This document shows, in pieces, positions 10,085 through 47,712 of a stretch of DNA of 48,548 bases. Below the pieces are notes generated by a model. It searched no databases. It was not told the origin of the DNA and was given only the letters and a program-made list of their open reading frames with translations. Origin of the DNA: Chloroflexota bacterium (GTDB lineage Bacteria; Chloroflexota; Anaerolineae; Aggregatilineales; J027); assembly GCA_003697365.1 (NCBI GenBank), contig RFGP01000077.1, forward strand, positions 1 to 48,548. The letters run 5' to 3'. A program made the position numbers and the translations under genes. Numbering within the stretch: the first letter of the stretch is position 1; every line of letters starts with the position of its first letter.

Positions 10085-10135
10085 GTAGAAGCGAAATGCT
10101 TTGTTATGTACTTCGGTTGAAAGTTGAGAAGGATT

Positions 10136-10504
10136 ATGCCAAAACGCATTTTGTATGTTGAAGATAACTTACACAATAAACGCTTGGTCAGAAAAATCTT
10201 GCAGTCACGTGGGTATGAAGTTTTAGAAGCCGAAGATGGACATACTGGCGTTGAAATGGCAATGTCAGAATTACCTGATCTGATCTTGATGGATATAAAT
10301 ATTCCCGGCCTTGATGGTATTGAGGCCACGCGCATGATTAAGGCCTATCAGCAAACAGCGCATATACCAATTATTGCCTTAACTGCAAATGCAATGCGTG
10401 GAGATCGGGAACGTTTTATATCAGCAGGATGTGATGACTATTTACCCAAACCCATCAGTACGGCAGATTTGCTGGCATTAGTGAAACAATATTTGAGCGA
10501 ATAA
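10136..10504 (+). CDS. single-domain response regulator (DivK/CheY-like)
   Basis: ILYVEDN, DLILMDINIPGLDG, IIALTANAMRGD, DYLPKP; ATG at 10136 after GAAGGA. Confidence 0.93.
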   Translation: MPKRILYVEDNLHNKRLVRKILQSRGYEVLEAEDGHTGVEMAMSELPDLILMDINIPGLDGIEATRMIKAYQQTAHIPIIALTANAMRGDRERFISAGCDDYLPKPISTADLLALVKQYLSE

Positions 10505-16521: not shown

Positions 16522-17046
16522 TTATCGCAGATTTTTCTCTAATATCCAACAAGGCTCGTGCATTTGCACAACTTCGCCACGATGGTTCATGTATTGCCAG
16601 CGTCCTTCATCTTCACCTATAACATGATACCCCAACCTTTCATAAAGTTGACGGGCACGAATATTGGTTTTTGCTGCTGAAATCATAGCGATTTCAAAAT
16701 CACGTTCAATAAGATTTTGTTCAGCATAGTGAATGAGACGAGTGCCAATACCAAGTCCTTGCAAATGTTCCATAACGCGCAATGCATAAAGATAGCCGCG
16801 CTTATGCTTTTCTTGGTTGTGCCCTAAGGCGAGATGTAAAAATACTTGCCCTATAGGAAAGTTGTTTAATACTGCAACTAACATGAGCCGCCGACCGATA
16901 CAATGTTCTTCATATGTCCGCGCATAGACGTTGCGGAAATGTGTATACTGCCCATACCACTCAAGTTTAGGTAAGTCTTCTGGCACGAGGGGGCGCAAGG
17001 TGATCATCAAATTTATGGAAAAGATACTAGCTTGTTGTGCCATCAT
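16522..17046 (-). CDS. GNAT family acetyltransferase
   Basis: LYALRVMEHLQGLGIGTRL and NIRARQLYERLGY. Confidence 0.88.
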   Translation of the reverse strand: MMAQQASIFSINLMITLRPLVPEDLPKLEWYGQYTHFRNVYARTYEEHCIGRRLMLVAVLNNFPIGQVFLHLALGHNQEKHKRGYLYALRVMEHLQGLGIGTRLIHYAEQNLIERDFEIAMISAAKTNIRARQLYERLGYHVIGEDEGRWQYMNHRGEVVQMHEPCWILEKNLR

Positions 17047-31144: not shown

Positions 31145-33622
31145 TCAATCTACTGGTGGGCATGGTGGGTCAAATTCGCCTACGACTGTATCCGCAACCC
31201 ACCCTTGAATGAGCTCGCCATCGCGTGTGAGCTCAATAAAGTACCACACGACCCCGTTTCTGTCGCGCTGCTGCTCGTATACATCTCCTCTTTCATTAGG
31301 GAAGAATGTTCCAATTACTGTGCCATTAGGGGTTTCGCGAATATTCACGCCACCCACCGATGATGTAAATACTTGGCAAATATACGTTCGTGGCGTAGCC
31401 GTTGCCGTAGGTGTAAAAGTACGTGTAGGGGTGGGCGTGCTTGTGGGTGGTCGATTTGTCGCCGTTAATGTTGCTTGTGCTTGCTGCGTTTGAACGAAAA
31501 ATCCTGTTGCTGCGGCGAAGGTTTGGCTAGCAATTTGAGTGCGTACCGCTGCTGTACTGGTTTGTTGACTTAAGAATGCGTCGCGTGTAGCCGTTAGATC
31601 GATTGCGCGTTGTTCAGTTGCACGCTGATTGGCTAGGTTGATCTCTTCTTGTGTAGCAGTATTGATCGCAGCCAAAGTTTGGGCCGTACTCGTGGCAAGG
31701 GCAAAAGCCGTTGCGGTTTGCTCTTCAGGGCTAAGCGGCGTATTTGTTGGTGTGCTAGTTGCGGTTGCGGTTGGTGTATCGCTCGGCGTACTGGTAGGTG
31801 ATGGTGTATCTGTGGCCGTTGCCGTAGCTGTCGCCGTGAAAGTCATCGTTCCAGTAGGGCTTGGGGTATCGGATGGGGCAATGACACCTAAAATGGGGGT
31901 GCGATTGATATAGCCAATTGCAGCTAGAATCATTAATAAAATAATCCCTGCTGCACCCCAACTCAAGAACCGTCGTTGACGCAATGCGCGCAACTCATTT
32001 TCTAGTCGTAAGATTTCGGTGCGTCGTCCCAATACGCGGAAAGGTTCTTCTTTACAAATAGCTAGCCAGCGAGCGGCCGCTTCTATGTCACGCCGATCTA
32101 AAGCTAACTCTACGCGCTCAATATGCCGACCTAATAGCTCACCCACAAGGTTTTGGTAGCGCGGGTCTTGGGCGAAATGGCGTAATCCCGATAGCATTTG
32201 CCTTGCTTGTGCAAGTTCATTGTCAAAATTTTGAGCAATAAGTCCTGATGCGCGTTCGATGATTTGCCGTCCTTCTCGCAATTCAGTTACTAGTTGCTCT
32301 GCTTGGCGTTTGCCAGCTATTGCTTCGCTGTCGGTTGGGTCAAGCCGCGTAGCCATTGTGAATAGCTCTAGGCTTTCTTCTGCTAAGCGATATTTATCTT
32401 CTAAGGAAGATACGCCTTCGATTCGAGAAAGAGTTGCTTGGCCTTGATCAATAAGTTGTGCCTTCACATTTTGTAGATGCGCATTTGTGTCATTGACCAT
32501 TTGTTGTAAGCGCGCGCTGCCGGGTAGAACTTGTCTTAGATTAGATAAGACCGTTAATAAGTTGACTAAGCCATCAGCACGTTCCATTAAAGAGCCGCTG
32601 ATCGTACTTAGGCGAATGTTGGCTTGGTCATATTGCTCTTGAATACGCTTGACGAGCTTTATACGCTCTTCGGCTTCAGGATTATTAGGCACTACTCGTA
32701 GCGAGCCTTCATATTTACTAAGCGCTTCTGACCATTCATCTGCTGCCAATAGCCGATCCCCGTCTGCCAAAAGCTGACGCGCTAACACGAGGTCTTGGAT
32801 TTCAAGCAGTGCTTGCTCTACATCTTTCCAACTACGAATGCCGCTGCGTTCGGCAATTTCGCGCGCTTCGCGATACAAACGTTCTGCTTCTTCATAGTTG
32901 CCAGCACGGACTAAAGAATTGGCTCTGTTATAAGCAACGCGCGCATCAAAAGGGATACGATGGTCAGGTACAATGCCCCGCATTAAGTTGTCTTCAGCTT
33001 TTTGTTTAAACTCTTGCGCTTGTTCGCTTTGTGGAAGTTGTTCTGCTAATTCAATAGTTCGCTCATAGTCGCCTGCGTAATAAGTAGAAGCAATTTCATT
33101 CAATAATTCTGCTTCATTTGTGGCATCTATAGACGTTGTGTTGGTTGAAGTTGTTGGGTCGGATGCTGAATCAGATGTTGTATCTTCACTTAATGTAAAG
33201 CCATAGCGTGTTGCCAGCCCTTGCACTTTAAGCATGTGTTGAGCACTACGTTGTGCTGCTTGGTGTAATAGCTCATGAATTTCGATGTTTTCAGGATCAA
33301 GCGCAAGAGCTTCGGCTAGAATGTCAATCGCTTCATCTAAATCGCGATCGTCACCCGCTATTTCAATGCGAATGCGCGCTTTTCTTATCAAACTGCGGAC
33401 TTGCCCTACGTTTGGGTTTGTTGCTGGAATTGCGCTGCGCTGTGCTAATTGACTGAAGAGCTCACGTGCTTCTGCTTCAAAGGGCGTATTTTTACTTTGT
33501 GTGAGTAAGTTACGCGCGAGTGCTTCTAGGTCTGCGACTAGCGTTGCTGAAGGTTCAGCTGGCATCATTTCAATTTGTTGACGTAATTCATTTAATGCTT
33601 GGCGTAAATCGCTCATTGACAT
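31145..33622 (-). CDS. TPR/helical-repeat protein with one TM, Thr-rich stalk and C-terminal SH3-like domain
   Basis: AIDILAEALALDPEN, YNRANSLVRAGNYEEAERLY; TM WGAAGIILLMILAAIGYI; TPTATAT repeats; VNIRETPNG..WYFI..GWV. Start is ATG 33622 or 33616; the ORF track gives GTG 33640. Confidence 0.82.
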   Translation of the reverse strand: MSMSDLRQALNELRQQIEMMPAEPSATLVADLEALARNLLTQSKNTPFEAEARELFSQLAQRSAIPATNPNVGQVRSLIRKARIRIEIAGDDRDLDEAIDILAEALALDPENIEIHELLHQAAQRSAQHMLKVQGLATRYGFTLSEDTTSDSASDPTTSTNTTSIDATNEAELLNEIASTYYAGDYERTIELAEQLPQSEQAQEFKQKAEDNLMRGIVPDHRIPFDARVAYNRANSLVRAGNYEEAERLYREAREIAERSGIRSWKDVEQALLEIQDLVLARQLLADGDRLLAADEWSEALSKYEGSLRVVPNNPEAEERIKLVKRIQEQYDQANIRLSTISGSLMERADGLVNLLTVLSNLRQVLPGSARLQQMVNDTNAHLQNVKAQLIDQGQATLSRIEGVSSLEDKYRLAEESLELFTMATRLDPTDSEAIAGKRQAEQLVTELREGRQIIERASGLIAQNFDNELAQARQMLSGLRHFAQDPRYQNLVGELLGRHIERVELALDRRDIEAAARWLAICKEEPFRVLGRRTEILRLENELRALRQRRFLSWGAAGIILLMILAAIGYINRTPILGVIAPSDTPSPTGTMTFTATATATATDTPSPTSTPSDTPTATATSTPTNTPLSPEEQTATAFALATSTAQTLAAINTATQEEINLANQRATEQRAIDLTATRDAFLSQQTSTAAVRTQIASQTFAAATGFFVQTQQAQATLTATNRPPTSTPTPTRTFTPTATATPRTYICQVFTSSVGGVNIRETPNGTVIGTFFPNERGDVYEQQRDRNGVVWYFIELTRDGELIQGWVADTVVGEFDPPCPPVD

Positions 33623-33626
33623 TTCC

Positions 33627-34745
33627 CTATGGGATAACACGCATATTCAAATAATCATTGATTGCTTTCATCAAGCGTCGGAGTTCAAATTCCATGTCTT
33701 CATTAATACCTTCAAGAATAGCAGCATCAGTGAGTAGATCGCGAGCTTCGCGAGCTAGCTCTGCGCTTTCACGCAATTTGCTTAGCCCATTACGAACGTA
33801 TTCACGCGCTTGGATAAGGGCAGGGTGGGTGACTTGAAAACGGAACTCCCATCCAAAATGAACTGCTGCTTGTTCTACGGTTTGCAAAAATTCCTCTGCA
33901 TTCGCAAAGTCTTGATGCGCCCCACGTTCTAATAGATCAATAATGGGTTGACTGAGCATCTCTCCCGAAAAGTCGAGATGTGTGACATCATTATACCGAG
34001 TGTCAACTTCCTGTTGGCTAGCAGGTTGTGGGCGCAATTCCCCACGTTGTGGCGACATGCCTGTGAAAATTGGGTATAGGATGCCAACGCATAGATTGTG
34101 AAGGTCTTTTCGCCTGAGGTTGTTTATTTGGGCATCATGTTGCTCTAATTGTTTTGAGCTATTCCAATCAATCACTCTTAACTTTTTACCATCCCAATAG
34201 ACATGCTCCAATTTGTGATCCATGTAAAAAATATAGTTTTCATGTGCTTCTAGGAGCATGTGGCCAAATTGCATCGCTAAATTTAAGCCCTCTTCAATAG
34301 GCAAGCGACGGCGTTGCCCACTGTTGTTTGTTTTCATGACATATAACAAATTCTGCTCACGTGGCAAGTATTCTAGGGCAATATAGGGTCGCCAGCCTTC
34401 ACTGTTGCGCGGAAAAAGATTTTCTTCAAAAGCGCGCCAGTCAGTACGTAGAGAGATAATCTCGCCATCAGGATATTCATTTGAGGATTGTATATAGCCA
34501 CAATCGTAATAGCGAATAGGTACAGGATTACGATCCAAGTTTTTTAATAGTCGCACTTCATGCGGAAAGGCTTTTGCCTCCCAGCGTGGAGCTTCATCTC
34601 TGGCGATGTGCTCTGGGCGCATAATTTTGAGGGCAACCTGCCGACCGTCGCGCAAGTCATGCGCTTCAAGGACTCGCGCATAGTGACCTAGAGCAAAAGT
34701 ATCAATAAAGTTGCCGAGTGCATAAACTTCTGTAATGGTTGGCAA
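33627..34745 (-). CDS. soluble atypical Ser/Thr kinase-like protein
   Basis: LGHYARV, VALK, HEVRLL, YIALEYL, catalytic loop YMDHKLEH, VIDWN; TTG start after AAGGAAG. Confidence 0.8.
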   Translation of the reverse strand: MPTITEVYALGNFIDTFALGHYARVLEAHDLRDGRQVALKIMRPEHIARDEAPRWEAKAFPHEVRLLKNLDRNPVPIRYYDCGYIQSSNEYPDGEIISLRTDWRAFEENLFPRNSEGWRPYIALEYLPREQNLLYVMKTNNSGQRRRLPIEEGLNLAMQFGHMLLEAHENYIFYMDHKLEHVYWDGKKLRVIDWNSSKQLEQHDAQINNLRRKDLHNLCVGILYPIFTGMSPQRGELRPQPASQQEVDTRYNDVTHLDFSGEMLSQPIIDLLERGAHQDFANAEEFLQTVEQAAVHFGWEFRFQVTHPALIQAREYVRNGLSKLRESAELAREARDLLTDAAILEGINEDMEFELRRLMKAINDYLNMRVIP

Positions 34746-34763
34746 AGTTTGCTTCCTTTACGA

Positions 34764-37700
34764 CTATTCAGCAGCAAATGTAAATTGCATGTCGAGAACA
34801 ATCACATATATACCACCGCGCGATGTATATAACACTGGTATCAGCGGCGTTCCTATTGGGTAGTTGGGCTCTGAAGTGCCTAATAATTGATCTTGGATAT
34901 ATAAGGACACTGTTCCATCGTCGTTACGTTCGATACGAATGTCAACGGTTACGCTTTCATCAGTAAAACTAGTACGTTCTCGATATTGATCATTTTCACG
35001 AATGCCCCATTCAATAACATTTGCGCGCGGTATGCGAATTTCAGCAGAAACACGTTCACGCTCTGTATTTTCTACACCCAAGCCAAAATGAATGCCATCT
35101 CCAATTCCTTGAGCATCACTTGGTAATGGTAAGGCAAGATTCATCTGTGCCTCAACAACCATTAAACGATTTGCCGCGTTCTCTGTCCCATAAAGGAGCG
35201 CAATATCGGACTGTTCTATTTTTACAACAACAGGGCCGCTTTGCCGACCTTCTGCTGAATAAAGCTGCCACGGACCACCTACGCTGGCGATAAAGCGCTC
35301 TTGTCCCCAACTATAAATGCCAGCATCACTTTGATTCAGCAATGCTAGTACATCAATTGTGAGGGAGTCAGTGGTTATGGGCACACTTTGCGTGGGAATG
35401 GGCGGGGGCAATGTTTGCGTGGGCGTTGCCGTAGGCACTGTTGCTGTTGGTGTGAGGGTTTGTGTGGGTGTTGTTGTTGGCAAATCTGTTGCCGTTGCCG
35501 TAGGAGAGATGGGCGTTTCTGAAGCTGTAGGCACTATGGTAGGAATATCTGTATTGGTAGGTACTATGGCAATTTCTACTTCTTTGGTGCTTGTGGGCGA
35601 AGTGATGACAGCTATATTAGATGAACCTTCATTTTTATTTGTATCATCACTGCTTCCGAAGCCTCCTAATCCTACAAAAGCGACAATTCCCAATAATACA
35701 ACAACAACAGCAATGATAATGCCATACGGTAGGTCATTACCTGTGGACTCATCGGTGAACTCTACGTCAGCGATAGGTTCATTTGCTATAAAAGCTGGTT
35801 GATCGGGTTCTTGTGGTGATTGATTGCTTCGACGTTGCCTACGTGGTTTAGGTTGTGTATCCAATTTTTCTGTTTCTGACACTTCTGGCTGGGCGATGGC
35901 AACGTGTCCTATTTCAGTATTAGTTGGTGGCGTTTCTGCTAGATTTTGCGTGACTTCGCGCCAAATTTGGTATAGGCGATAGATTGGGTGCCGATTAATG
36001 AACAAATTAGCAAAATGATTTTTAAAATCATTTAGTTTTTCTATTTTGGTAAGGGTTTCATCTGTGTATGTATTTTTCACAGCACGATACGTTGAAAGCC
36101 ATTGCTGGACTTGATGAGCATGGCTTGGCCCTAATTGTTGTTCTGTAGCAGAAACAATTCCGATGAGCGTTTCTTCAATGGTTTCGTTGGGCGGAATATA
36201 CTGACCGGGAGGCGGAACTTTGGTCGTGTGTGCAATTTCCTCTAAGCGCAGCTTAGCTGCTTGTAAATCGGCAGCAGTATCTCGTAAGCGCCGAAGTTTG
36301 ATACGCAAGTTATCGGTATCTATAGCGCTATTGGTATTTTCTTCTAGTTGTGAAATAGCTGTATCTAGTGCATCGCGTGCTGCCTTGAATTCCCCATCTT
36401 CCCAATGCCGAACGGCAACATCAAGTTGCCGAATGGCTAGCTGAAACTGAGGCACCCATTTTTCGGCAAGGGGTGTGTTCAGTAAGGCGCGAATCTTCAA
36501 TAAATCACTAACCGTTGTTGCATTCTCAAGGGCATTATGAAGCTGACTAACTAAAGTTTGCCCTGCTAGCTGCTCTTCTAAAATTTGAAAAAGTATATTG
36601 CTCTCAACATTAGGCAATGTTTTTTGAGCCGCATTTTGCCAAAAACGGGCACTATCAAGATCGTGTTCTTGAATAGCCATCATGCCCTGAAAAACATAAT
36701 GAAGGAACAAAATACGTATACTAATACTGCTATACTCTCGTAACGATTCTAGCAAGTCATCATTAAGAGATGCGAGATAATCTTGTTCGCTACGCATCTT
36801 TGCCGTGAATTGTTCAAGCGCTTGTTGTTCTTCTCGCGTAAAGAGTTCAACAACTGCTTGTTCGGCACGACGAGTACGCTCAAAACTGGTTTGTCCTTCT
36901 TGCTCTAGCCAGTGTATAGGAATTTTACAAAGCTCTGAGAGGCGTTTAATGGTTTGTGTCTCGCCGACTGAAGTGGTTAGTGAGAAAGCTCCTTCTGTTT
37001 TGTATTCAGCATCTCGAAACTTACCTTGATCCCAAAGTTGGTAGATTTCGATGAGCTTCGCCGAAAGTTCCACATTAGGGCCCAATTGTTCTATTTGAGC
37101 AGTTGTGCGGACTACATCAGCACGTTGACGTGCCCACTGCGCGATTTTTGTATTATAAGGAGCAATGAGGCGTGCTAGTCTTATGAGATTGGCTTTGGTG
37201 GCGGCGCGGTGTCCACTGATTAAAGCATCGCTTATTTGCTGCCATAATTCGGCGCTGGTTTGTAGCGTATTTAATGCTTCATTCAGTGCTTCATCTCTTA
37301 AATCCTGCGCGTAGGGGGATAAAATCCCGATGACGCGCTCAAACCAATCACCTAAGTTTGTGCCCTCAACATCTGGAGTAAAGTTGGCAACAGCTTCAAT
37401 TGCAAGGTGAATTTCTTCAAAATAATCATGTAGTTGTTTGAATAAGTTTTGCTTGGGGTCTAGCTGATATGCTGTTTCTAAGGACTCTGTTGCTTTATCA
37501 GGTTGGCTATAAACATTTTGCGCCGCAATATCTAAATTTTTGATAATGTATGTGATGATCTCTTGAGCGCGTGCTAAAACATCTAAAGTGCGTTCATGTC
37601 CAGCATAGACAATTGGTAACGATTCTAGCTGGTGATAACCATACGTATATATATCACGTACATATGTTAGGGTTAACTCTTCTGGAACAGTGTTTAGTTT

Positions 37701-39083
37701 TGTGAGTATTTGACGCAATGTTGTTTTGGCTGAAGTCCCATCTCCCAACAGTTCTGCATCAAATTCTAAACGAGTGAGTAGTGGCCTCAATAATGCCACA
37801 TTCGGAATCATTGCTGTTAAGCGTTCAGCCAATAGTTGATTAATGAGCGTTGGGCTATTGTGTAGTAATAATGCTGCTTGATAGGGTTCGTCCTGTTCTA
37901 GCAAGTGGATAGCTGATGCCAACTCGGACGGTGGTTCATTTAACCCACGTTGTTCAAGTAATTCTGCAGCAGCTACGATGAAACGAATAACAGGGGCTGT
38001 TTGTTCATCTGCTGTATCCAACAGCGCCATCATCGTTTCCATTGCACGATACCAATTGCCATTGTCTAAGTAGATCAAAGCTGCATCAATATCTGCTAAG
38101 GTTCGTAGGCGTTGCATTTGAATTTCAATTTCACTTTGCAGAGCAGCAACTTCAGGGTAACCACTATCCATTTGACGTGCTTCATCTAGGCGTTTGGCAA
38201 GGGATTCTAGCTCTTGTTGACTGTTACGAGTGGATAATTTTTGTTTTATTTCTTGTAAAATGGCATTGCGCTGTTCTTGAAGCGGGCGACGAATTTCGCT
38301 TAATTGTTGACGCAACTCGGCTATGGTTGCATAGCGTTTGCGTAAATTGGGATGTGTGGCACGAGTGATAACTTGTTGCAAACTTGCTGGAACGTGTGGG
38401 GCATCCAGTCCAAAAATAACAGCATGTTCTCCGTCAGGACTCGTTTCACTTTCAAATCTTTTGCCACCAGTCACAATAAAATAAAGCAGTTCACCTACTT
38501 GATAAATGTCAGTTTGTCGTGTGACTTGATTGGTACCTTGTTCATCTAATAAAACAGCATTGCCCCAATCGATTACTTTCAAGCGATAGTGTTCGCGATC
38601 CCAAAAGAGATGTTTAGCGTCGACATCGTTATAAACTACTTGTTGGTCATGCGCTACCATTAACAAATCCAAGAGTTCATCAACAATGACGAGGGTCTCT
38701 AATAATGGCAGACGCTCACCTTTGCTTGCTAGCTCGCGCACTAAATCTGCGACAATTTCACCATGAGCACGGTCTAGTACAATATATTCATGCGTTTGTC
38801 CCCCCACTCGAAAAGTTCCAACATAGCGCAATTCGACAAGGGCAGGATGCCCACTCAAACGTTCAAGCGCTTTGCGTTCTGTGCGTATGCTAATTTCTTG
38901 AGCGGCGCGCATCGGGGGGGCATCTTGAGGTGCGGGGCGCTTGATTACTAACAAAATATGAGGATCGTTTATATCCCAAGCGCGCAATGTTTCGCCTGAG
39001 CGCCCACGTGGAAATATGTAATCATATTGATAGCGACCGTCAAACGTTCCAATCCGTCCACTTGAAGGTGGTGTTTCTGTCAT
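34764..39083 (-). CDS. membrane-spanning atypical Ser/Thr kinase-like protein (kinase, long helical region, TM, Thr stalk, beta domain)
   Basis: RGRSG, VIK, TERKAL, YNDVDAKH, VIDWG, DIYQVGELLYFIVTG; about 800 aa helical region; TM IIIAVVVVLLGIVAFVGL; beta-rich C-terminus (VDIRIERNDDGTVSLYI). Confidence 0.85.
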   Translation of the reverse strand: MTETPPSSGRIGTFDGRYQYDYIFPRGRSGETLRAWDINDPHILLVIKRPAPQDAPPMRAAQEISIRTERKALERLSGHPALVELRYVGTFRVGGQTHEYIVLDRAHGEIVADLVRELASKGERLPLLETLVIVDELLDLLMVAHDQQVVYNDVDAKHLFWDREHYRLKVIDWGNAVLLDEQGTNQVTRQTDIYQVGELLYFIVTGGKRFESETSPDGEHAVIFGLDAPHVPASLQQVITRATHPNLRKRYATIAELRQQLSEIRRPLQEQRNAILQEIKQKLSTRNSQQELESLAKRLDEARQMDSGYPEVAALQSEIEIQMQRLRTLADIDAALIYLDNGNWYRAMETMMALLDTADEQTAPVIRFIVAAAELLEQRGLNEPPSELASAIHLLEQDEPYQAALLLHNSPTLINQLLAERLTAMIPNVALLRPLLTRLEFDAELLGDGTSAKTTLRQILTKLNTVPEELTLTYVRDIYTYGYHQLESLPIVYAGHERTLDVLARAQEIITYIIKNLDIAAQNVYSQPDKATESLETAYQLDPKQNLFKQLHDYFEEIHLAIEAVANFTPDVEGTNLGDWFERVIGILSPYAQDLRDEALNEALNTLQTSAELWQQISDALISGHRAATKANLIRLARLIAPYNTKIAQWARQRADVVRTTAQIEQLGPNVELSAKLIEIYQLWDQGKFRDAEYKTEGAFSLTTSVGETQTIKRLSELCKIPIHWLEQEGQTSFERTRRAEQAVVELFTREEQQALEQFTAKMRSEQDYLASLNDDLLESLREYSSISIRILFLHYVFQGMMAIQEHDLDSARFWQNAAQKTLPNVESNILFQILEEQLAGQTLVSQLHNALENATTVSDLLKIRALLNTPLAEKWVPQFQLAIRQLDVAVRHWEDGEFKAARDALDTAISQLEENTNSAIDTDNLRIKLRRLRDTAADLQAAKLRLEEIAHTTKVPPPGQYIPPNETIEETLIGIVSATEQQLGPSHAHQVQQWLSTYRAVKNTYTDETLTKIEKLNDFKNHFANLFINRHPIYRLYQIWREVTQNLAETPPTNTEIGHVAIAQPEVSETEKLDTQPKPRRQRRSNQSPQEPDQPAFIANEPIADVEFTDESTGNDLPYGIIIAVVVVLLGIVAFVGLGGFGSSDDTNKNEGSSNIAVITSPTSTKEVEIAIVPTNTDIPTIVPTASETPISPTATATDLPTTTPTQTLTPTATVPTATPTQTLPPPIPTQSVPITTDSLTIDVLALLNQSDAGIYSWGQERFIASVGGPWQLYSAEGRQSGPVVVKIEQSDIALLYGTENAANRLMVVEAQMNLALPLPSDAQGIGDGIHFGLGVENTERERVSAEIRIPRANVIEWGIRENDQYRERTSFTDESVTVDIRIERNDDGTVSLYIQDQLLGTSEPNYPIGTPLIPVLYTSRGGIYVIVLDMQFTFAAE

Positions 39084-40186: not shown

Positions 40187-40239
40187 GTGTTGACGATCAC
40201 AATGCAAAATTGAGTGTGTATTCTGAAAGGTCGTATCTT

Positions 40240-42660
40240 ATGGACGTTTTAAAGTTAATGCAGACAATGGAGTATGGCCCTGCGCCTGAATCACCTTCAG
40301 CGGCGTATGCTTGGCTTGATGCTCATCAACGTAAGTTTGATCTCTTCATCAATGGAACGTGGGTAGCCCCTTCTAGTAATCAATATCTAAAAGCAATCAA
40401 TCCTGCAAAAGATGAATTGCTTGCAGAAGTTGCAGATGCTAATGCAGAAGATGTCGATGCTGCGGTAAAGGCTGCTCGCGCAGCTTTTGAGACGTGGAGC
40501 AAGACAAATGGACATCTTCGTGCTCGTTATTTGTATGCGATTGCGCGAAATATCCAAAAACACCAACGTTTACTTGCTGTTGTTGAAGCTCTGGATAATG
40601 GAAAATCAATCCGTGAAACACGCGATATTGATGTTCCTTTGGTGGCGCGACATTTCTACCATCATGCTGGTTGGGCACAGCTAATGGATACCGAGTTATC
40701 ATCGTATCAGCCCGTAGGTGTGGTGGGCCAGATTATCCCTTGGAACTTTCCGCTCTTGATGTTGGCTTGGAAAATTGCGCCTGCACTTGCAATGGGGAAT
40801 ACAGTTGTGATCAAGCCTGCACCCCATACAAATTTGTCTGCTTTACTATTTGCTGAAATCATTAGCGAGGTTGGTCTACCCGCAGGTGTGGTTAATATTG
40901 TAACTGGTGGTGATCAGACTGGGGCTTTCATCACAGAGCATCCTGATTTTGACAAAATCGCTTTTACGGGCTCAACTCATGTAGGGCGAATTATTCGGCG
41001 CGTGACAGCAGGCACGGGCAAGAAACTTTCATTAGAACTAGGTGGCAAGTCGCCTTTTATGGTTTTTGAAGACGCTGATCAAGATAGCGCCGTAGAAGGT
41101 CTTGTTGATGCTATTTGGTTTAATCAAGGGCAGGTTTGCTGCGCTGGGTCACGCTTGCTTGTACAAGAAAGCATTGCGGATGGGTTTTTGGCAAAAGTAA
41201 AAGCGCGTATGAAAACCTTAAGAGTTGGGGATTCGCTTGACAAAGGCATTGATATGGGGGCAGTGGTTGCGCCCGTACAATATGAAACGATTGATCGCCT
41301 TGTGAAAGTTGGCGTAGCAGAAGGTGCCGATTTATTCCAAGCCGATACGCCTATCCCTACTAAAGGTTGCTATTATCCACCGACCTTGCTCACTAATGTA
41401 CAGCCGTCTTCTACGGTAGCACAAGAAGAAATCTTTGGCCCTGTTTTGGTGGCCATGACTTTCCGTACTATTCGTGAAGGCATTGAACTTGCGAACAACA
41501 CCCGTTATGGCTTAGCTGGTAGTGTTTGGAGTGAGAATATCAACCTTGCTTTGTATGTTGCTCAACACATTAAGGCGGGCAGCATTTGGATAAACTGTAC
41601 TAATTTATTTGATGCCGCAGCGGGTTTTGGTGGCTATCGAGAAAGCGGCTTTGGCCGTGAAGGTGGCCGCGAGGGTTTATTAGAATATGTGCGTCCTAAG
41701 TGGGAAGAGCGTCCTCGTCCTAGTTTTACGCCTAACCCAGATTGGGGAAAGCATATTCCACCCTCTCCTAAATCGTTAAATGGTGCTGCACCTTCGCAAA
41801 ATGGATTGCCAGCTATTGATCGCACGCCAAAGCTGTATATTGGCGGCAAGCAGAAGCGTCCAGATGGTAACTATACGCGCGCGGTGATGAATCCAAAGGG
41901 CGAGCTAGTTGGGCAAGTGGGCGATGGTAATCGTAAAGATATTCGTGATGCCGTTGAAGCTGCTCATAAAGCTCTAGCAGGATGGGCAGCACGTGATGCT
42001 CATAATCGCGCTCAAATTCTCTATTATATTGCTGAAAATTTGGCTGCACGTGAAAGCGAATTTGTTGCGCGGCTGCAAACAATGATGGGAGTAAGCGCTA
42101 AGCAAGCAGCCCAAGAATTTGCTGCGAGCTTAGAACGTTGGTTTATTTATGCGGCATGGGCAGATAAATATGGCGGCACAATCCAAGAAACACCTTTGCG
42201 TGGCGTTACAATGGCTGTGCATGAACCCATAGGGGTGGTTGGGATCGCGTGCCCTGATGAATATCCGTTACTTGCATTTTCATCATTAGTCGCCCCAGCA
42301 ATTGCGCGTGGTAATGCGGTTGTTGTTATACCATCATCTCAATATCCTCTCAGTGCCACAGATTTTTATCAAGTGCTCGATACATCAGATGTGCCGAGTG
42401 GTGTAGTAAATATTGTCACAGGAGACCGCGATCATTTGAGTAAGACTCTTGTTGAGCACGATGATGTTGATGCCATGTGGTATTTTGGTAGCGCGGAAGG
42501 TAGCTATGCGATTGAATATGCTTCGGCATCAAATATGAAGCGCACATGGGTGAATTATGGGCAATCTCTCAATTGGCTTGATGTTACTCAAACAAGCGGA
42601 GAAGTTGTCTTGCACCATGCAACTCAGGTGAAGAATATTTGGGTGCCAACGGGAGAGTAG
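40240..42660 (+). CDS. double-length aldehyde dehydrogenase (ALDH16-like)
   Basis: IIPWNFP, FTGST, LELGGKSP (Glu), QGQVCCAG (Cys), EEIFGPV, then a second partial ALDH module; ATG at 40240 after GAAAGG. Confidence 0.93.
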   Translation: MDVLKLMQTMEYGPAPESPSAAYAWLDAHQRKFDLFINGTWVAPSSNQYLKAINPAKDELLAEVADANAEDVDAAVKAARAAFETWSKTNGHLRARYLYAIARNIQKHQRLLAVVEALDNGKSIRETRDIDVPLVARHFYHHAGWAQLMDTELSSYQPVGVVGQIIPWNFPLLMLAWKIAPALAMGNTVVIKPAPHTNLSALLFAEIISEVGLPAGVVNIVTGGDQTGAFITEHPDFDKIAFTGSTHVGRIIRRVTAGTGKKLSLELGGKSPFMVFEDADQDSAVEGLVDAIWFNQGQVCCAGSRLLVQESIADGFLAKVKARMKTLRVGDSLDKGIDMGAVVAPVQYETIDRLVKVGVAEGADLFQADTPIPTKGCYYPPTLLTNVQPSSTVAQEEIFGPVLVAMTFRTIREGIELANNTRYGLAGSVWSENINLALYVAQHIKAGSIWINCTNLFDAAAGFGGYRESGFGREGGREGLLEYVRPKWEERPRPSFTPNPDWGKHIPPSPKSLNGAAPSQNGLPAIDRTPKLYIGGKQKRPDGNYTRAVMNPKGELVGQVGDGNRKDIRDAVEAAHKALAGWAARDAHNRAQILYYIAENLAARESEFVARLQTMMGVSAKQAAQEFAASLERWFIYAAWADKYGGTIQETPLRGVTMAVHEPIGVVGIACPDEYPLLAFSSLVAPAIARGNAVVVIPSSQYPLSATDFYQVLDTSDVPSGVVNIVTGDRDHLSKTLVEHDDVDAMWYFGSAEGSYAIEYASASNMKRTWVNYGQSLNWLDVTQTSGEVVLHHATQVKNIWVPTGE

Positions 42661-42669
42661 GGGGTAAAA

Positions 42670-42701
42670 TTTATCAGCCACCAGAAATGGTGGCTGATAA
42701 A
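42670..42701. terminator. hairpin between convergent ALDH and pilin-adhesin genes
   Basis: TTTATCAGCCACCA-gaaa-TGGTGGCTGATAAA, a perfect 14-bp stem. Confidence 0.85.
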
Positions 42702-42721
42702 CTTAACTTGTGAAGGCAGAT

Positions 42722-45700
42722 TTATTCAATAATACGAATATTATCAATCCACCAACCTTCTCTTGGCCCATCACTTGTTAAGGCATCAAGCCGGAATCTG
42801 AATGTCACCAAATTACCCGCATAAGGTGTGAGGTCTGCAGTCATTGTTTCCCAATTGAGATCTGTTCCACTTGTTCTTTGGTAAATAGTTGTCCAAGTGA
42901 AACCACCATCGGTTGAGACATCAAGGTTAATACGATGATTATTGCCCAGATCGTAGCGCTGATCCCAATACAGCGTATAGTTACTACTGGCAGGAATGTT
43001 GACAAGCCCTTCAAGTTCAACAACGGACTCTGTGCGTCGGTCATAATTTCCTGATGGGCTATCGGTGAACATCTTGCTTTCACCTTCGATATTGAAGATG
43101 AAGTCCGATGAGCCCTTGTTATGGATGAAGTGTACCATCACCGTCACATTGCCAGCTGGGAAATTGATAGGTGGAGAAGTAAAGCTCTCTGAAACACCGC
43201 AATTAAACCATCGATGTTCATAGGTGGGGTTACTAAGGTCCGGCAATGTTCCAGTAGGATATACCCAAACGCGCACACCATCATCAGATAGACCTGAAAA
43301 TTGGTACGTTGTCGCTGCTGGAATATAGAAGTTACGAATGAACACTGCTCCCCAACGGTTATCTACAGTGATACCATTGCTTGAAGGTGTGCCATCACTC
43401 CAAGTGAAGTTGATTTCATCAAGTGTAGATGTTCCTACTTGAGAGCCGAAGTCTATATAGGCACTACCACTGCAACCTCGACCGTTATCATACCATTCAA
43501 CATCCCATTGACCGGGACCAAGCGATGGGCCACTTCCAAAGCTGCGATATTCTGTAACAACATCCCACTCGTGCTCAAGGACAAACTCACCGGGATTGAG
43601 AGCCTCTATGTCCTCATTGTAGGGGGGGATATAGGTAGCTTCTTCAGTACGACTGATAATTTGAACATCGTCTAGATAAGCACCATCTCTACCGCGGTTA
43701 TTAAGGCTTTGGGCTTGCCAACGCACACGGATGTTTTGACCGATGTAAGGCCGTAAGTCAACTTCCATGCGATGCCAGCCATCGTTGCGTACATTTTCTA
43801 ATTGTGTACTCGGAACTGCTGTCCAGTCAGAGAGCAAGCGCCCAGCGGCATCTGCAAGTGCAATTTCTACTTCCCAATGTAATCTGTTGCGACTAATGTT
43901 ATATTTTGTCCAATAGTATAGTGCGGGATCAATGGCTCCTGTCAGGTTTACAGTCGGACGAAGCTCTATGATGCCAGTTTCATCAACTTGCATATTGCCC
44001 GGTGTGTCTTCCCAAGAATAGGTACCGCTATGAGCTGTTGAGCTTGTGATTTGCCATTTTCCGCTTGTATACCAGTTGAAAGTTCCCGCTTCCATATCAT
44101 CCGCAAATGGTAGGGTGATAAGTGGTTCTGGCATGTCTAAGAAACAGAAGGTATCAATGTACCAACCGTCTTCTTCGACGCTACCATTGGCAAATAGGCG
44201 GAAGCGTATCTTAAGGCCGGGTACACCGGGGGCTGTTGTACCAATATAAGGCGTTAGGTCAATGACTTCACGCATCCATGATTGAACTTCATCGAGTCTT
44301 TCATCATATTGCGGAATTGAGACATCCCAATATGGATATGGATCAAGTTTGTTTTGCCCCGCGAAGTTATTATCATTGTCAATAAAGCTGAAGACCTTTG
44401 TCCATGAGAAACCATCATCGGGCGAAATTTCAACGACAAGCTCGTCATCCGAGTCGTCACCTTCTCTGATGTCCCATTGATGGTAGAAGGTCACTACAGG
44501 GCGTGTCATAGAGTCAATCTCAAGGTATGGAACGAACTCAGCTGTATAATTCGAGTTTCTCGCGTAGTACCCTGAGGGGCTATCTGTTAAGGCAAATGCG
44601 CCGTCTCGAACAATACTGCTGGTAAGTCCCCAATTTCCATTGAGTACCCAATTGGCTGTTCCACCGTCAAAAGTATCACAGTCTCCTACACCTGCTGTGA
44701 CAGTTGGCTTATTACGGAACTCAATATCATCGATAACCCACCCTTGATCGGTGTTGCTGCCATCTGTCTCTAGGCGGAAGCGAATATAAACGCGGGATTG
44801 CCCGATGTAAGAAGCAGGGATTGTTGCGACTGCTTGTGTCCAGCTTTCAACAGCAATATCACCAGTTGCCATTGGGCCGGGAGGTTGATACCCAAAAATG
44901 GAACGGGTTTCAAGAGGTGACCAATTTATTTTATCGGTTGAAATTTCAACATAGATACGATCAACAGGGTCAAGATCAACATACTGCCAAAATACTACTT
45001 CAGGCGCAGTCACAGGTACTGGACTGCTGGAAGACAAATCCAAGCGTCCATTTAGACGTATGCTGGTGTTGGTATTGTTTTGGTAGTTTGAACCCGGGCT
45101 GTCATCCCAAGCTGTACCAGAGCGTGCTCTAGCATTAGAGACTGTCCATGTGCCTTCTGGTATCCAGTGATCAGCAGTATCAACAGGGTCTTGGAAGCCT
45201 AGATAGTAGGGTGTTTCAGGGATTTCTCGAATACTAATATCATCGATCCACCATCCATCACGTTCATTACTATTGTCGCTTCGCATGATAAAGCGCAATT
45301 CAATGCGATTTCCGCGGAAGTCAGTTAAACCACCTAGATCATCGGCAAAGCGTGCCAAGTCAATACGCTGACGAGTAAATGTCCAATTAGTGACAGGGCC
45401 GTCATGAACAGTAAGGAATTTCCAATCATCAGTGCCCTCAATGGCGATTGCAACTAAGGCTTTGTCAAAGCTATTGATGTCATAGCGATCATAGAATTCA
45501 AGATAAGGTTCTACGGCACCTGTTAGATCAACAGTACCGCGCAGACGCATCACACATTCTTGGTTACGGAAGTAATAGCGTCCGACACTGTCATGCCATG
45601 AGGGTGGTGATGTATTACCTGTACCGCTGTCTAGTTCCCAATTACAGGCTGGTGTAGTGTTTTCTGTGCTCTTGTTCATCGTTACGGTGAGGCGGCCAGC

Positions 45701-46663
45701 ACCCCCAGTATCGCGGAATACAATGCGGAAGTAGTACGTTCCTGCAGATGGAGGAGTATAGTCAAAGGATGCCCCAGCAATATCTTCTTGATAATTATAA
45801 CTCCAGCGATCTAGCAACTTTGTCCATGTGGAGCCATTCGGGCTGACATAGATGCGAACACCGTCATCTTTTTGGTAGTTGATGGTATACGTTGTTGCTT
45901 CCAGTGCAACTGTTCCTGAATAACGCGCACAGAAATTGTCACTAGGTAGGCTCGGATGCGCTTTATCGTTATCTGTTTGCCAGTAATCATCGGGATAACT
46001 GGCATCTGGAAACTTAATACGCGGCACTGAAATTGTAGCAATCGGCGGATTTGCAATATTACCATTGCTACTATTGAAGAAGTTTCCCCAATTACAACCA
46101 TTACCAGATGAATTTGTCCAGTTAATATCCCAATATTCTGCCGTCCATGGGCCGCTCATCCAAAATTCATCTGCTATATCCACATGGAAAGTATCAGGAT
46201 CAGAACCATCATCCGCGAAGGGATAAGTGTATTCTGTGTCTGGTGGTGTTGGGCTGGGTCCGAAAGTCGCCGTTGTCGTAGGTGTCGGTGTATCAGACGG
46301 CGTTGATGTATTGCTCGGTGTGGGCGATGGCCCAGCGGTGTTCGTAGCGGTTGGTAGGGGAGTTGCCGGCAGCGGCGTATTGGTCTGCAAATCTGGCGAT
46401 TCAGGTGTATAAGAGGCGACTGCCGTTACAATATCCCAAAACTCGGTTGGATCGAGAGGTTCTTGAGGGGTGGTCGTTTGACCTAAAAGATTATAAACAG
46501 TATTGCTAAATACGTTGCCAACCGCTGGTGCAAGAATCACTAAGATGGCTATCAAGCCAATTACACCCAATACAAGGATGAGGACATATTCAACTAATGC
46601 TTGCCCTTGTAGGTGTTCATTATGTGATCGCAACATGCGGTTTGTTGGTACTTTTCTTTTCAT
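42722..46663 (-). CDS. Flp/Tad-type prepilin fused to PA14 and repeated jelly-roll (MAM/InhA-like) domains
   Basis: G|QALVEYVLILVLGVIGLIAIL..PAVGNVFSN; T/P linker; two DDGVR PA14 motifs; five repeats ending in GWxIDD-like motifs; ATG at 46663 after AAAGGA. Confidence 0.85.
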   Translation of the reverse strand: MKRKVPTNRMLRSHNEHLQGQALVEYVLILVLGVIGLIAILVILAPAVGNVFSNTVYNLLGQTTTPQEPLDPTEFWDIVTAVASYTPESPDLQTNTPLPATPLPTATNTAGPSPTPSNTSTPSDTPTPTTTATFGPSPTPPDTEYTYPFADDGSDPDTFHVDIADEFWMSGPWTAEYWDINWTNSSGNGCNWGNFFNSSNGNIANPPIATISVPRIKFPDASYPDDYWQTDNDKAHPSLPSDNFCARYSGTVALEATTYTINYQKDDGVRIYVSPNGSTWTKLLDRWSYNYQEDIAGASFDYTPPSAGTYYFRIVFRDTGGAGRLTVTMNKSTENTTPACNWELDSGTGNTSPPSWHDSVGRYYFRNQECVMRLRGTVDLTGAVEPYLEFYDRYDINSFDKALVAIAIEGTDDWKFLTVHDGPVTNWTFTRQRIDLARFADDLGGLTDFRGNRIELRFIMRSDNSNERDGWWIDDISIREIPETPYYLGFQDPVDTADHWIPEGTWTVSNARARSGTAWDDSPGSNYQNNTNTSIRLNGRLDLSSSSPVPVTAPEVVFWQYVDLDPVDRIYVEISTDKINWSPLETRSIFGYQPPGPMATGDIAVESWTQAVATIPASYIGQSRVYIRFRLETDGSNTDQGWVIDDIEFRNKPTVTAGVGDCDTFDGGTANWVLNGNWGLTSSIVRDGAFALTDSPSGYYARNSNYTAEFVPYLEIDSMTRPVVTFYHQWDIREGDDSDDELVVEISPDDGFSWTKVFSFIDNDNNFAGQNKLDPYPYWDVSIPQYDERLDEVQSWMREVIDLTPYIGTTAPGVPGLKIRFRLFANGSVEEDGWYIDTFCFLDMPEPLITLPFADDMEAGTFNWYTSGKWQITSSTAHSGTYSWEDTPGNMQVDETGIIELRPTVNLTGAIDPALYYWTKYNISRNRLHWEVEIALADAAGRLLSDWTAVPSTQLENVRNDGWHRMEVDLRPYIGQNIRVRWQAQSLNNRGRDGAYLDDVQIISRTEEATYIPPYNEDIEALNPGEFVLEHEWDVVTEYRSFGSGPSLGPGQWDVEWYDNGRGCSGSAYIDFGSQVGTSTLDEINFTWSDGTPSSNGITVDNRWGAVFIRNFYIPAATTYQFSGLSDDGVRVWVYPTGTLPDLSNPTYEHRWFNCGVSESFTSPPINFPAGNVTVMVHFIHNKGSSDFIFNIEGESKMFTDSPSGNYDRRTESVVELEGLVNIPASSNYTLYWDQRYDLGNNHRINLDVSTDGGFTWTTIYQRTSGTDLNWETMTADLTPYAGNLVTFRFRLDALTSDGPREGWWIDNIRIIE

Positions 46664-46839
46664 CAACCGCTATCCTTTATCTCAAAATTCGTTTATTTTC
46701 GGAATGAGGTCTCGAAAATCTATACTAATGTTACCTGACCCCTGCTAAAATTTGAGCCATAAATTTGTCGGCATTTGTAGGAACTCTTTTACAAAAGCCG
46801 TTTTGCTAAGATTTCTGAACAAATTGGGGACAATATATT

Positions 46840-47712
46840 ATGCCTATTTTAGATGGAAAAGCTATCGCTGAGCAAATGCGACAACAAATCGCTGCTGATG
46901 TGGAGGCGTTAGTACAAAAAACGGGCGTTCGTCCGGGATTAGCAGCTGTATTGGTGGGAGATAATCCAGCATCTCAAACCTATGTACGGATGAAACAACG
47001 TGCTTGTGAAGCGGTTGGTATTCATTCTGTGTTGCACGAAATCCCCGCCGATGTGGATCAAGCCACTTTAGAATCTTTGATACAAAAATTAAACGCCGAT
47101 CAAACAATTCATGGTATCTTAGTGCAATTACCTCTACCCAAGCATCTAGATGAACAGCGCATACTTGATCTGGTTCGCATTGAAAAAGATGTTGATGGCT
47201 TTCATCCACTGAACATGGGACATTTGGCGATGAAAGGGCGCGAACCTTTATTTATGCCCGCCACACCCGCTGGCTGTATGGTGTTACTTGAAAAAGCAGG
47301 TGTGAAATTTTCAGGTGCTAATGCCGTAGTGATTGGACGAAGTAATATTGTAGGATTACCCGCTGCTCTAATGCTTCTTAAACGCGATGCAACCGTAACG
47401 ATTGTGCATAGCCGCACGCCTGAGCCGTCATCTATTGTTCGCCAAGCTGATATAGTGATCGCTGCTGCAGGACGTGCAGCAATGGTTAAGGCAGATTGGA
47501 TTAAGCACGGTGCTGTAGTCATTGATGTAGGAACAAACCGCGTTGATGATCCAACTGCGAAACGTGGGTATCGCTTGGTTGGAGATGTTGATTTTGAAGC
47601 TGTGAAAGACAAAGCATTGATTACACCTGTACCCGGTGGTGTGGGCCCTATGACGATAACAATGTTGTTGAGTAATACACTCAAAGCAGCGCAATATAGC
47701 GTGGCTCGATAG
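46840..47712 (+). CDS. folD: methylenetetrahydrofolate dehydrogenase/cyclohydrolase
   Basis: ILDGKAIA, YVRMK, GILVQLPLP, KDVDGFHP, VIGRSNIVG, ITPVPGGVGPMT. Confidence 0.97.
   Translation: MPILDGKAIAEQMRQQIAADVEALVQKTGVRPGLAAVLVGDNPASQTYVRMKQRACEAVGIHSVLHEIPADVDQATLESLIQKLNADQTIHGILVQLPLPKHLDEQRILDLVRIEKDVDGFHPLNMGHLAMKGREPLFMPATPAGCMVLLEKAGVKFSGANAVVIGRSNIVGLPAALMLLKRDATVTIVHSRTPEPSSIVRQADIVIAAAGRAAMVKADWIKHGAVVIDVGTNRVDDPTAKRGYRLVGDVDFEAVKDKALITPVPGGVGPMTITMLLSNTLKAAQYSVAR

Follow-up and report, generated by a model that had tools for sequence, protein, structure and literature searches.

On the minus strand of contig RFGP01000077.1 (Chloroflexota bacterium, assembly GCA_003697365.1, order Aggregatilineales of the class Anaerolineae), which we analysed over its full 48,548 nucleotides (the window), positions 42722 to 46663 encode a protein of 1,313 residues that starts like a pilin of the Flp type and continues as a large multi-domain ectodomain. 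We favour the reading, to which we give an even chance on the strength of sequence and homology, that this protein (in the following the giant) is a modular type IVc (Flp) pilin that is cleaved and then incorporated into Tad pili as an adhesin, sparsely or at the tip. The family to which it belongs probably makes a sticky display of the thin Tad pili or of the cell surface. It is conserved across an order and apparently undescribed: a full-text literature search, outside the scope of which lay most subscription journals and supplements, returned no account either of the family or of any giant Flp fusion, and the only prior trace of the family that we saw is an automatic label of JGI, “Flp pilus assembly pilin Flp”, on several homologues.

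Homology of the N-terminus to Flp pilins

The giant is encoded by a single uninterrupted open reading frame (ORF) of 1,313 codons plus stop. Its ATG at 46663 is preceded by an AAGGA 10–13 nt upstream and is also the start of the database copy of the protein (P0002, beginning MKRK); an alternative TTG start lies three bases ahead of it at 46666. The N-terminus reads MKRK..HLQG/QALVEY, that is, a basic leader followed by G20/Q21-A-L-V-E25-Y26, in which the presumed cut after Gly20 would place Glu at +5 and Tyr at +6. QALVEY is followed by about 22 hydrophobic residues and then by PAVGNVFSNTVYNLLG (the PAVGNVFSN region). Because the homology to real Flp pilins is clear, we read residues 1–62 as a complete Flp prepilin and the remainder of the protein as an extension.

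When the 3.1-Mb genome was translated in all six frames, G-x4-E-[YF] followed by at least 12 hydrophobic residues occurred four times in its ORFs, and only the match in the giant has E-Y and begins a long ORF. A looser genome-wide scan yielded 24 candidates, among which the giant came first by hydrophobicity, with a mean Kyte-Doolittle value of 3.51 over the 18 residues after the motif. A hidden Markov model (HMM) built from the N-termini of the family and run against the ORFs of the genome matched the giant at E 1.4e-24; after it, at E 0.56 and 1.1, came the two TadE-like proteins encoded there.

Of 201 genomes of the class searched with the 86-residue N-terminus, 134 contain matches, mostly frames of 48–100 residues that align to residues 18–60 with 45–67% identity. 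Six small flp genes read out from relatives encode proteins of 48–53 residues of the form ML..P.EKG/QGLVEYALILVLVA..LGP.IGNVFS.., and a profile of eleven giant N-termini aligned to these six small Flps with an hhalign probability of 99.2 (E 1.2e-19, 46 columns, 48% identity), a match that spans the entire small pilin. Motif and alignment together bear out the original prediction, made from the letters of this DNA, of a full Flp-like pilin N-terminus (G/QALVEY with Glu+5 and Tyr+6). The two best PDB matches of the giant N-terminus profile were the Caulobacter Tad pilins 8u1k and 8u2b, which had marginal E-values (0.043 and 0.14), were the only Tad pilins listed and have Glu5 and Tyr6 in register with the giant. 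Downstream of the pilin module, the family alignment contains a conserved segment in which the F, W, V, A, V, A, S, T and P columns are nearly invariant, whereas the small Flps stop before it. The stalk rich in Thr and Pro that had also been predicted is present, with 25 Thr and 21 Pro in residues 61–160, and a full Flp pilin is indeed fused to a large multi-domain ectodomain, an arrangement that the family conserves.

Neither the Flp_Fap nor the TadE model of Pfam, with which a scan had been proposed, matches the giant. On its N-terminus, Flp_Fap (PF04964), Class_IIIsignal and the NCBIfam models gave nothing at E ≤ 10; since the genuine 48-residue small Flp of a congener also stays under the Flp_Fap cut-off (E 9.4e-6, 25.8 bits compared with 32.2), that model is weak for this clade. 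A scan of the whole genome with PF04964 produced a single 13-bit match inside a 363-residue membrane protein on contig C70, which was discarded as spurious. An assignment as TadE-type pseudopilin was also rejected: PF07811 does not match the giant, and its matches in this genome are confined to two proteins on C70. The giant shares with canonical Flps the G/XXXXEY end of the leader, the roughly 20 hydrophobic residues and the short polar half of the helix, and departs from them in size and in the PF04964 match; at 1,313 residues we therefore file it as a fusion containing a Flp module and not as a canonical Flp. Gln instead of Phe at +1 and the leader of 20 residues point to the Flp type and not to type IVa or IVb. 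In joining an N-terminal pilin module that has a signal peptide of class III to non-pilus modules, here Flp to modules of the PA14 and MAM type, the giant has the layout of the modular pilins of Raynaud et al (2021).

Conservation and distribution of the family

A search of 5.8 billion proteins, in which 7,998 candidates were scored, identified 232 relatives at E ≤ 1e-5. Those that were listed, 120 in number, have 958–1,976 residues, and the named ones come from Chloroflexota or Anaerolineae metagenome-assembled genomes (MAGs). The motif G-x4-E-[YFWL] lies within the first 90 residues of 119 of the 121 sequences inspected; one of the two exceptions is an N-terminally truncated entry and the other a protein whose N-terminus differs. 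Averaged over 49 relatives, identity amounts to 13% for the leader, 72% for the Flp module, 64% for the segment behind it, 44% for the stalk and 28–42% for the globular domains. Judged by these alignments, constraint is strongest on the mature pilin part of the giant. The accessory domains vary among relatives in number and type (Big_9, Cadherin_5, TSP_3, CBM_6 and BNR according to Pfam). Paralogues with swapped C-termini, for which a search had been suggested, did not appear: 58 proteins of 722–2,300 residues matched residues 18–100 of the giant, and as 56 of them have the same MAM/PA14-type Pfam content (for the other two no Pfam domain is recorded), there is no sign in this size class of the giant N-terminus on unrelated C-termini.

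For the distribution we sampled 121 genomes of the same order, including this one, and searched them with a 340-residue query. Giants are present in 73 of the 120 other genomes (best E ≤ 2.6e-13), in one copy and mostly as frames of 785–2,159 residues, with a few short frames that are likely cut by contig ends; the remaining genomes score at E ≥ 7.7e-10, which represents small Flps only. A hand tally by family gave 15/18, 17/22, 1/1, 0/22, 4/4, 12/22, 4/10 and 20/21. A class-wide search with residues 62–1313, a stricter first look, returned only weak domain matches and was not used for the distribution.

Architecture of the ectodomain

Sequence profiles and a structure model show that the ectodomain comprises five jelly rolls of the MAM type and two PA14 domains, which appear to be nested in the first and the fifth roll. 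The numbers of domains and the closing motifs of the rolls (GWWIDDI at residues 470–476, GWVIDDI at 641–647, GWYIDTF at 833–839, GAYLDDV at 994–1000 and GWWIDNI at 1303–1309) are as originally predicted; what has changed is the position of the PA14 domains, which appear to lie within the rolls rather than beside them.

To compare the domains, the family alignment was cut into seven segments, which were aligned profile against profile with hhalign. All five jelly rolls are mutually homologous (probability 99.9–100, E 1e-34 to 2e-51), and so are the first and second PA14 domains, PA14-1 and PA14-2 (probability 99.6, E 4.6e-24, 156 columns). Among the Pfam models, InhA-like_MAM (PF20773, cut-off 26.9) reaches 62.6 bits on the giant, Reelin_subrepeat-B reaches 55.6 bits on the full sequence and 35.3 bits on residues 1196–1313, and PA14 (PF07691, cut-off 24) scores 23.1 bits on the whole giant and 26.9 bits on the isolated first segment. 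PA14-2 matches the PA14 domain of RsgI3 (6qe7) by sequence at E 1.9e-4.

An AlphaFold2 model of residues 146–1313, made from 50 aligned sequences, is all beta over its approximately 1,170 residues, with a mean predicted local distance difference test (pLDDT) of 87.7. The best Foldseek matches to it are reelin repeats, neuropilins and enzymes that bear carbohydrate-binding modules (CBMs). With VIA-align, meprin MAM domains matched at Z 15–16 (root-mean-square deviation 2.4–3.0, 145–159 residues aligned) and InhA2 at Z 12.8. Adhesin domains of the Kgp gingipain and CBMs matched jelly roll 3 (model residues 513–700, Z 12–13), and the LAST-MAM structure 8a28 matched jelly roll 4 (model residues 707–861, Z 13.8). 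Solved PA14 domains (RsgI3 6qe7, RTX-adhesin 6m8m, Marinomonas 6xa5 and the insert of a yeast beta-glucosidase) matched both PA14 parts at Z 12–14: PA14-1 reached Z 12–12.9 with the Marinomonas and Kluyveromyces domains (model residues 20–191), and PA14-2 reached Z 14.1 with 6qe7 and 13.4 with 6m8m (model residues 904–1051). Residues 1006–1040, some 35 residues at the head of the second “PA14 segment”, match the beginning of repeats 2–4 (probability 73–92), and one meprin MAM domain (Z 15.4) spans model residues 1 to 336 with only 145 residues aligned; it is because of this start match and this span that the PA14 domains look nested in jelly rolls 1 and 5.

No catalytic domain was found in the giant. 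The protein was considered as a protease and this was rejected, as the NCBIfam M36 matches cover accessory regions only and score 51–57 bits compared with cut-offs of 1,500–1,700. From the likeness in fold to PA14, MAM and CBM domains, the ectodomain may bind Ca2+ and glycans, which makes this its candidate function.

Tad genes in the genome and across the order

Tad and prepilin peptidase genes, whose location had been proposed as a check and whose absence from the genome had been named as an argument against a Flp pilin, are present on contigs C63, C70 and C121. Contig C63 carries genes for a CpaB/RcpC-like protein (435 residues), CpaF/TadA (460 residues, T2SSE 210 bits), TadB (324 residues) and TadC (316 residues), which sit behind a histidine kinase and a LuxR-type regulator. 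On contig C70 (13792–19117, minus strand; L073:793-6118), genes for a TadE (307 residues), a TadG-like protein with VWA domain (694 residues) and a further TadE (761 residues) are adjacent to each other and follow downstream of two response regulators of the OmpR type and one GAF histidine kinase; with its unusually big subunits, this trio is a candidate Tad tip complex. Contig C121 holds the only Peptidase_A24 of the genome, a protein of 293 residues that scored 48.9 bits in the genome scan and 45.0 bits on the protein. A secretin was not found in the genome, as expected for the envelope of the phylum. Separately, contig C166 (14141–15604, plus strand; L076:2142-3605) encodes a second, orphan ATPase of the CpaF/TadA type (487 residues, T2SSE 212 bits), whose gene is flanked by ABC-transporter genes and an alpha-amylase gene and does not have platform genes as neighbours.

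Within the order, TadB/C (PF00482, E ≤ 1e-5) occur in 114 of the 121 genomes, and the proteins are found in 72 of the 73 giant-bearing genomes compared with 41 of the 47 without a giant. Six of the seven genomes that lack TadB/C also lack the giant, five of these six being assemblies of one or two contigs, and the seventh is a MAG of 350 contigs that has it. This co-occurrence is weakly consistent with a dependence of the giant on Tad. As an observation in its own right, these five assemblies of one or two contigs (G278, G288, G293, G298 and G311) still contain weak small-Flp-like ORFs of 51–234 residues (E 1e-4 to 2e-6), which are either orphan flp genes or point to a platform protein too divergent for PF00482.

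A proposed modular pilin and its alternatives

As a modular pilin, the giant would be inserted into the cytoplasmic membrane by its hydrophobic N-terminal helix, and the single A24 prepilin peptidase would remove the 20-residue leader at G/Q, as the invariant motif suggests. The mature Flp helix of 42 residues could then be taken up by CpaF, TadB, TadC and the CpaB-like protein like an ordinary Flp, at low stoichiometry and either early, near the tip together with the TadE/TadG-like proteins, or sparsely along the shaft. The helix behind the Flp module and the Thr/Pro stalk would project outward and hold the five MAM-type rolls and the two PA14 domains off the filament, and the likeness of their folds suggests that this array would be a multivalent, probably carbohydrate-directed adhesin for life in hot-spring mats and biofilms.

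In Flp systems, Glu5 is needed for assembly and not for cleavage. That the most constrained part of the giant is the mature pilin module with its filament-relevant residues argues for a pilin over an anchor; a plain membrane anchor needs only hydrophobicity. The accessible sections of the structural work on Tad pili describe Glu5 as bonding to the N-terminus of the neighbouring subunit in type IV filaments, and the Tad pilin's C-terminal helix half as the surface of a filament with a rise of 4.9 Å and a diameter of about 50 Å (PMC10710030), and with the C-terminal half on the surface the geometry would allow display of the giant's extension. The precedents of modular type IVa pilins, and of Tad pili functionalised by large minor pilins together with small Flp adapters, support this reading by analogy. 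The other PA14 protein of the window (10646–12160, plus strand; 504 residues, PA14 82.8 bits, two SH3_3 domains) has an ordinary Sec-type signal peptide, so that export by a Flp N-terminus is not the default here. In complex prediction, three copies of the mature small Flp of a congener combined with residues 21–88 of the giant scored 0.17 and 0.20 against a mark of 0.32, in runs made without controls, a result that speaks on neither side.

Several observations weigh against a modular pilin. PF04964 gave no match at E ≤ 10, whether the query had 63, 86 or 1,314 residues. No small flp gene was detected in this genome by two motif scans, the family HMM on ORFs of at least 25 residues, the 86-residue query and inspection of the gaps in the tad locus. 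The site at which the congener G242 has its 48-residue flp is intact here (C122:4269-4694) but empty; in G242 this flp adjoins a 602-residue gene, whose homologue here has been relocated to C196, where no flp lies beside it either (C196:1-3400). Without a small Flp, the giant would be a “minor subunit” lacking a major one, unless the assembly lost it: at 3.1 Mb in 220 contigs and 95.9% completeness by markers, compared with 3.9–4.9 Mb in congeners, the assembly is small and fragmented, and the absence of a small flp is therefore not proven. Furthermore, no tad gene lies within 10 kb of the giant in any of 62 related loci, and where relatives carry the giant and tad genes on one contig the distance is at least 26 kb. 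The window itself holds no member of the Tad families among the 34 ORFs scanned, in line with the original prediction, which noted the absence of a nearby tad locus. Such a missing neighbourhood is normal for the clade, because the giants of relatives are likewise unlinked and so are small flp genes, with no tad gene within 10 kb of those of the congeners G242 and G270 and the relatives G115 and G119. Conserved as a single copy beside folD across several families, the giant bears more resemblance to a core part of the envelope than to a typical accessory adhesin. The co-occurrence with TadB/C is weak evidence, because Tad is near-universal in the order and related genomes are not independent. 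An ectodomain of about 130 kDa must, moreover, cross the wall along with the pilus. Finally, the sequencing runs listed with this DNA, five of DNA (from two studies, all labelled hot springs metagenome) and none of RNA, say nothing on expression.

The main alternative is a prepilin that is cleaved and then stays where it is, its helix in the cytoplasmic membrane, its stalk spanning the wall and its array on the cell surface in a bindosome-like arrangement that involves no filament. We regard this anchor as possible, if rather doubtful. It would suit the finding that the giant is unlinked to tad genes at each of the 62 related loci. One N-terminal helix, about 57 Thr/Pro-rich residues and then globular domains is a layout to be expected of a wall-spanning stalk, the giant is a single-copy syntenic core gene of the order, and no small Flp was found in this genome; in archaea, class III signal peptides are known on surface proteins that form no filaments, and the bindosome is mentioned in PMC13705601. 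An anchor, however, has no need of the conserved Glu5 and Tyr6 or of the pilin surface half, yet the module that contains them is the most conserved (72% compared with 28–42%) and still resembles the small Flps over its full length, and TadB/C are kept by 72 of the 73 giant-bearing genomes of the order.

More improbable, in our view, is that the giant is itself the major subunit and that Tad polymerises it alone into a thick “bottle-brush” fibre or a sheath-like coat; we know of no such decorated fibre of tens of nanometres. It would have a core of Flp helices and a corona of MAM/PA14 arrays, and would agree with the giant being the only Flp-type N-terminus in a genome that is 95.9% complete, with the intact but empty flp site of the congener, with the retention of Tad genes and with the conservation of the full Flp module. 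By contrast, all four same-genus genomes searched contain small Flps in addition to the giant (one to three matches each, the second match of G290 being a 112-residue frame with 56% identity), a 150-bp flp gene may easily be missing from a 3.1-Mb assembly in 220 contigs, and with the rise of 4.9 Å given in the accessible text of PMC10710030 and about 1,170 ectodomain residues per subunit we estimate that the fibre would be tens of nanometres thick. The more general idea that in this order of hot-spring and sediment Chloroflexota the Tad machine has, next to the assembly of thin Flp pili, a second conserved job, namely to polymerise or mount the giant as a core envelope structure such as a bottle-brush fibre or sheath-like coat, is also unlikely, if marginally less so; under it the giant would be the only filament subunit of this genome, which has Tad genes and no small Flp. 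We give the smallest chance to the Flp-like start being a relic, with export and anchoring, or release, proceeding without prepilin peptidase or Tad and the similarity being kept for membrane insertion. That no curated model recognises the N-terminus and that the gene has no genomic linkage to tad genes would be in keeping with a relic, but Gly at −1 and Glu/Tyr at +5/+6 persist across deep divergence in 119 of 121 sequences while the leader drifts (13% identity), a pattern to be expected of a maintained signal for cleavage and assembly, and a relic is disfavoured.

Coordinates and genomic neighbourhood

The coordinates of the giant gene and its parts are given in Table 1. Its neighbours are housekeeping genes, folD in divergent and an aldehyde dehydrogenase gene (40210–42660) in convergent orientation. 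The giant divergently adjoins folD in 28 of 62 related loci and, in addition, in G115, G029 and G242. Promoter and terminator scans of positions 42500–47000 gave counts not above those of shuffled sequence.

Table 1. Positions in the window of the giant gene, the parts of its product and the divergent neighbour.
Feature	Position	Strand	Basis or remark
Whole gene	42722..46663	−	1,313 codons + stop; stop codon at 42722–42724
Basic leader peptide, residues 1–20, ending in Gly20 (presumed prepilin-peptidase cut G/Q)	46604..46663	−	Least conserved part; Gly invariant
Flp pilin module, residues 21–62: QALVEY, hydrophobic helix, PAVGNVFSNTVYNLLG	46478..46603	−	hhalign to small Flps; PDB Tad pilins
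Conserved post-Flp segment, residues 63–88 (TTTPQEPL..EFW..VTAVASYTP)	46400..46477	−	Without counterpart in small Flps
Thr/Pro-rich stalk, residues 89–145	46229..46399	−	Composition kept in the consensus of relatives
Jelly roll 1 (MAM type), residues 146–482, ends GWWIDDI, appears to hold PA14-1	45218..46228	−	InhA-like_MAM; hhalign probability 99.9–100
PA14-1, about residues 165–336	45656..46171	−	Pfam PA14 26.9 bits; fold matches
Jelly roll 2, residues 483–652, ends GWVIDDI	44708..45217	−	hhalign probability 99.9–100 to other repeats
Jelly roll 3, residues 653–845, ends GWYIDTF	44129..44707	−	hhalign; fold matches
Jelly roll 4, residues 846–1005, ends GAYLDDV	43649..44128	−	hhalign; fold matches
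Jelly roll 5, residues 1006–1313, ends GWWIDNI, appears to hold PA14-2	42725..43648	−	Reelin_subrepeat-B; hhalign
PA14-2, about residues 1049–1196	43076..43519	−	hhalign to PA14-1; 6qe7 sequence match
folD	46840..47712	+	Pfam THF_DHG_CYH; marker of the orthologous locus, not a functional partner

Elsewhere in the window, positions 7931–10084 (plus strand) encode an unusual protein of 717 residues in which PALP, a pyridoxal-phosphate-dependent enzyme (215 bits), is fused to two response-regulator receiver domains, and this gene is followed by a stand-alone receiver at 10124–10504. An 878-residue protein (17043–19679, minus strand) combines DHH/DHHA1 and CBS with the head domain of poly(A) polymerases and CCA-adding enzymes. 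The region 31145–39083 (minus strand) contains two proteins of 1,439 and 372 residues with weak protein-kinase matches (37.5 and 30.2 bits), followed by a TPR protein of 831 residues.

Comparison with known systems

Tad/Flp pili are defined by tiny subunits, and how bare helices gain specific adhesion is an open question; modular pilins are known for type IVa, and large tips of the TadE/F/G type have been proposed for Tad pili. Should the giant be a modular Flp pilin, the principle that modules are grafted onto pilins would extend to type IVc filaments, with a Flp subunit that carries lectin-like domains of more than 1,200 residues in all. The giant would then be a natural test of the cargo that a Flp helix can carry through the Tad machine and the wall, and it is a candidate for cell–cell or cell–polymer adhesion of filamentous Chloroflexota in mats and flocs. 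If it serves as an anchor only, it would parallel in bacteria what archaea do with class III signal peptides on surface proteins that form no filaments.

Canonical Flps, such as Caulobacter PilA (8u1k and 8u2b) and the small Flps of Anaerolineae, resemble the giant in that their leader ends in Gly and is followed by x4-E-Y, roughly 20 hydrophobic residues and a short polar helix half. They differ in length, with 48–53 residues in relatives and 45 mature residues in the solved structures, whereas the giant runs on for about 1,250 residues. The modules of its ectodomain resemble in fold (Z 12–16) those of proteins that reach the outside by other routes: the PA14 and MAM modules of 6m8m and 6xa5, 6qe7, meprin (MAM, 4gwm), InhA2 (4yu6) and the gingipain adhesin domains are brought out of the cell through type I secretion, Sec signals or eukaryotic secretion, in no case on a pilin, and the giant is without a catalytic domain.

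Prepilin-type binding proteins of archaea also consist of a prepilin N-terminus with the bulk made up of binding domains, which is a likeness by layout. They are much smaller than the giant, and most of their genes lie within or close to type IV filament loci; the Epd pili of archaea are regarded as the origin of Tad pili. In the Kil Tad pilus of Myxococcus, as described in the accessible sections of PMC12075869, low-abundance pilins with large variable domains confer function and the small Flp-type KilK and KilO act as adapters. The genome analysed here likewise has large TadE, TadG-like and TadE genes. The large subunits of the Kil system are, however, TadE/F/G-like and encoded in tip gene clusters (PMC12075869), whereas in the giant the large domain is fused to Flp and the gene stands alone beside folD.

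The type IVa pilins PilB (vWA) and PilC (lectin) of Streptococcus sanguinis resemble the giant in that a non-pilus adhesive module is grafted onto a pilin module, and share with it a monoderm-type envelope and a proposed location at the tip or sparsely in the filament, according to the accessible text of PMC8179133. There, their pilin modules are of type IVa with a globular pilin head and the IPR012902 motif, whereas the giant has a bare Flp helix. The survey of type IVa modular pilins was built on IPR012902, the paper does not contain the word “Flp”, and the largest case that it gives has 860 residues (PMC8179133), compared with frames of up to 2,159 residues among relatives of the giant. The giant would work like a modular pilin but probably lies outside the set defined by IPR012902. 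The grafting of modules onto pilins is already established, and a Flp of 1,300–2,000 residues across an order is a notable variant of it.

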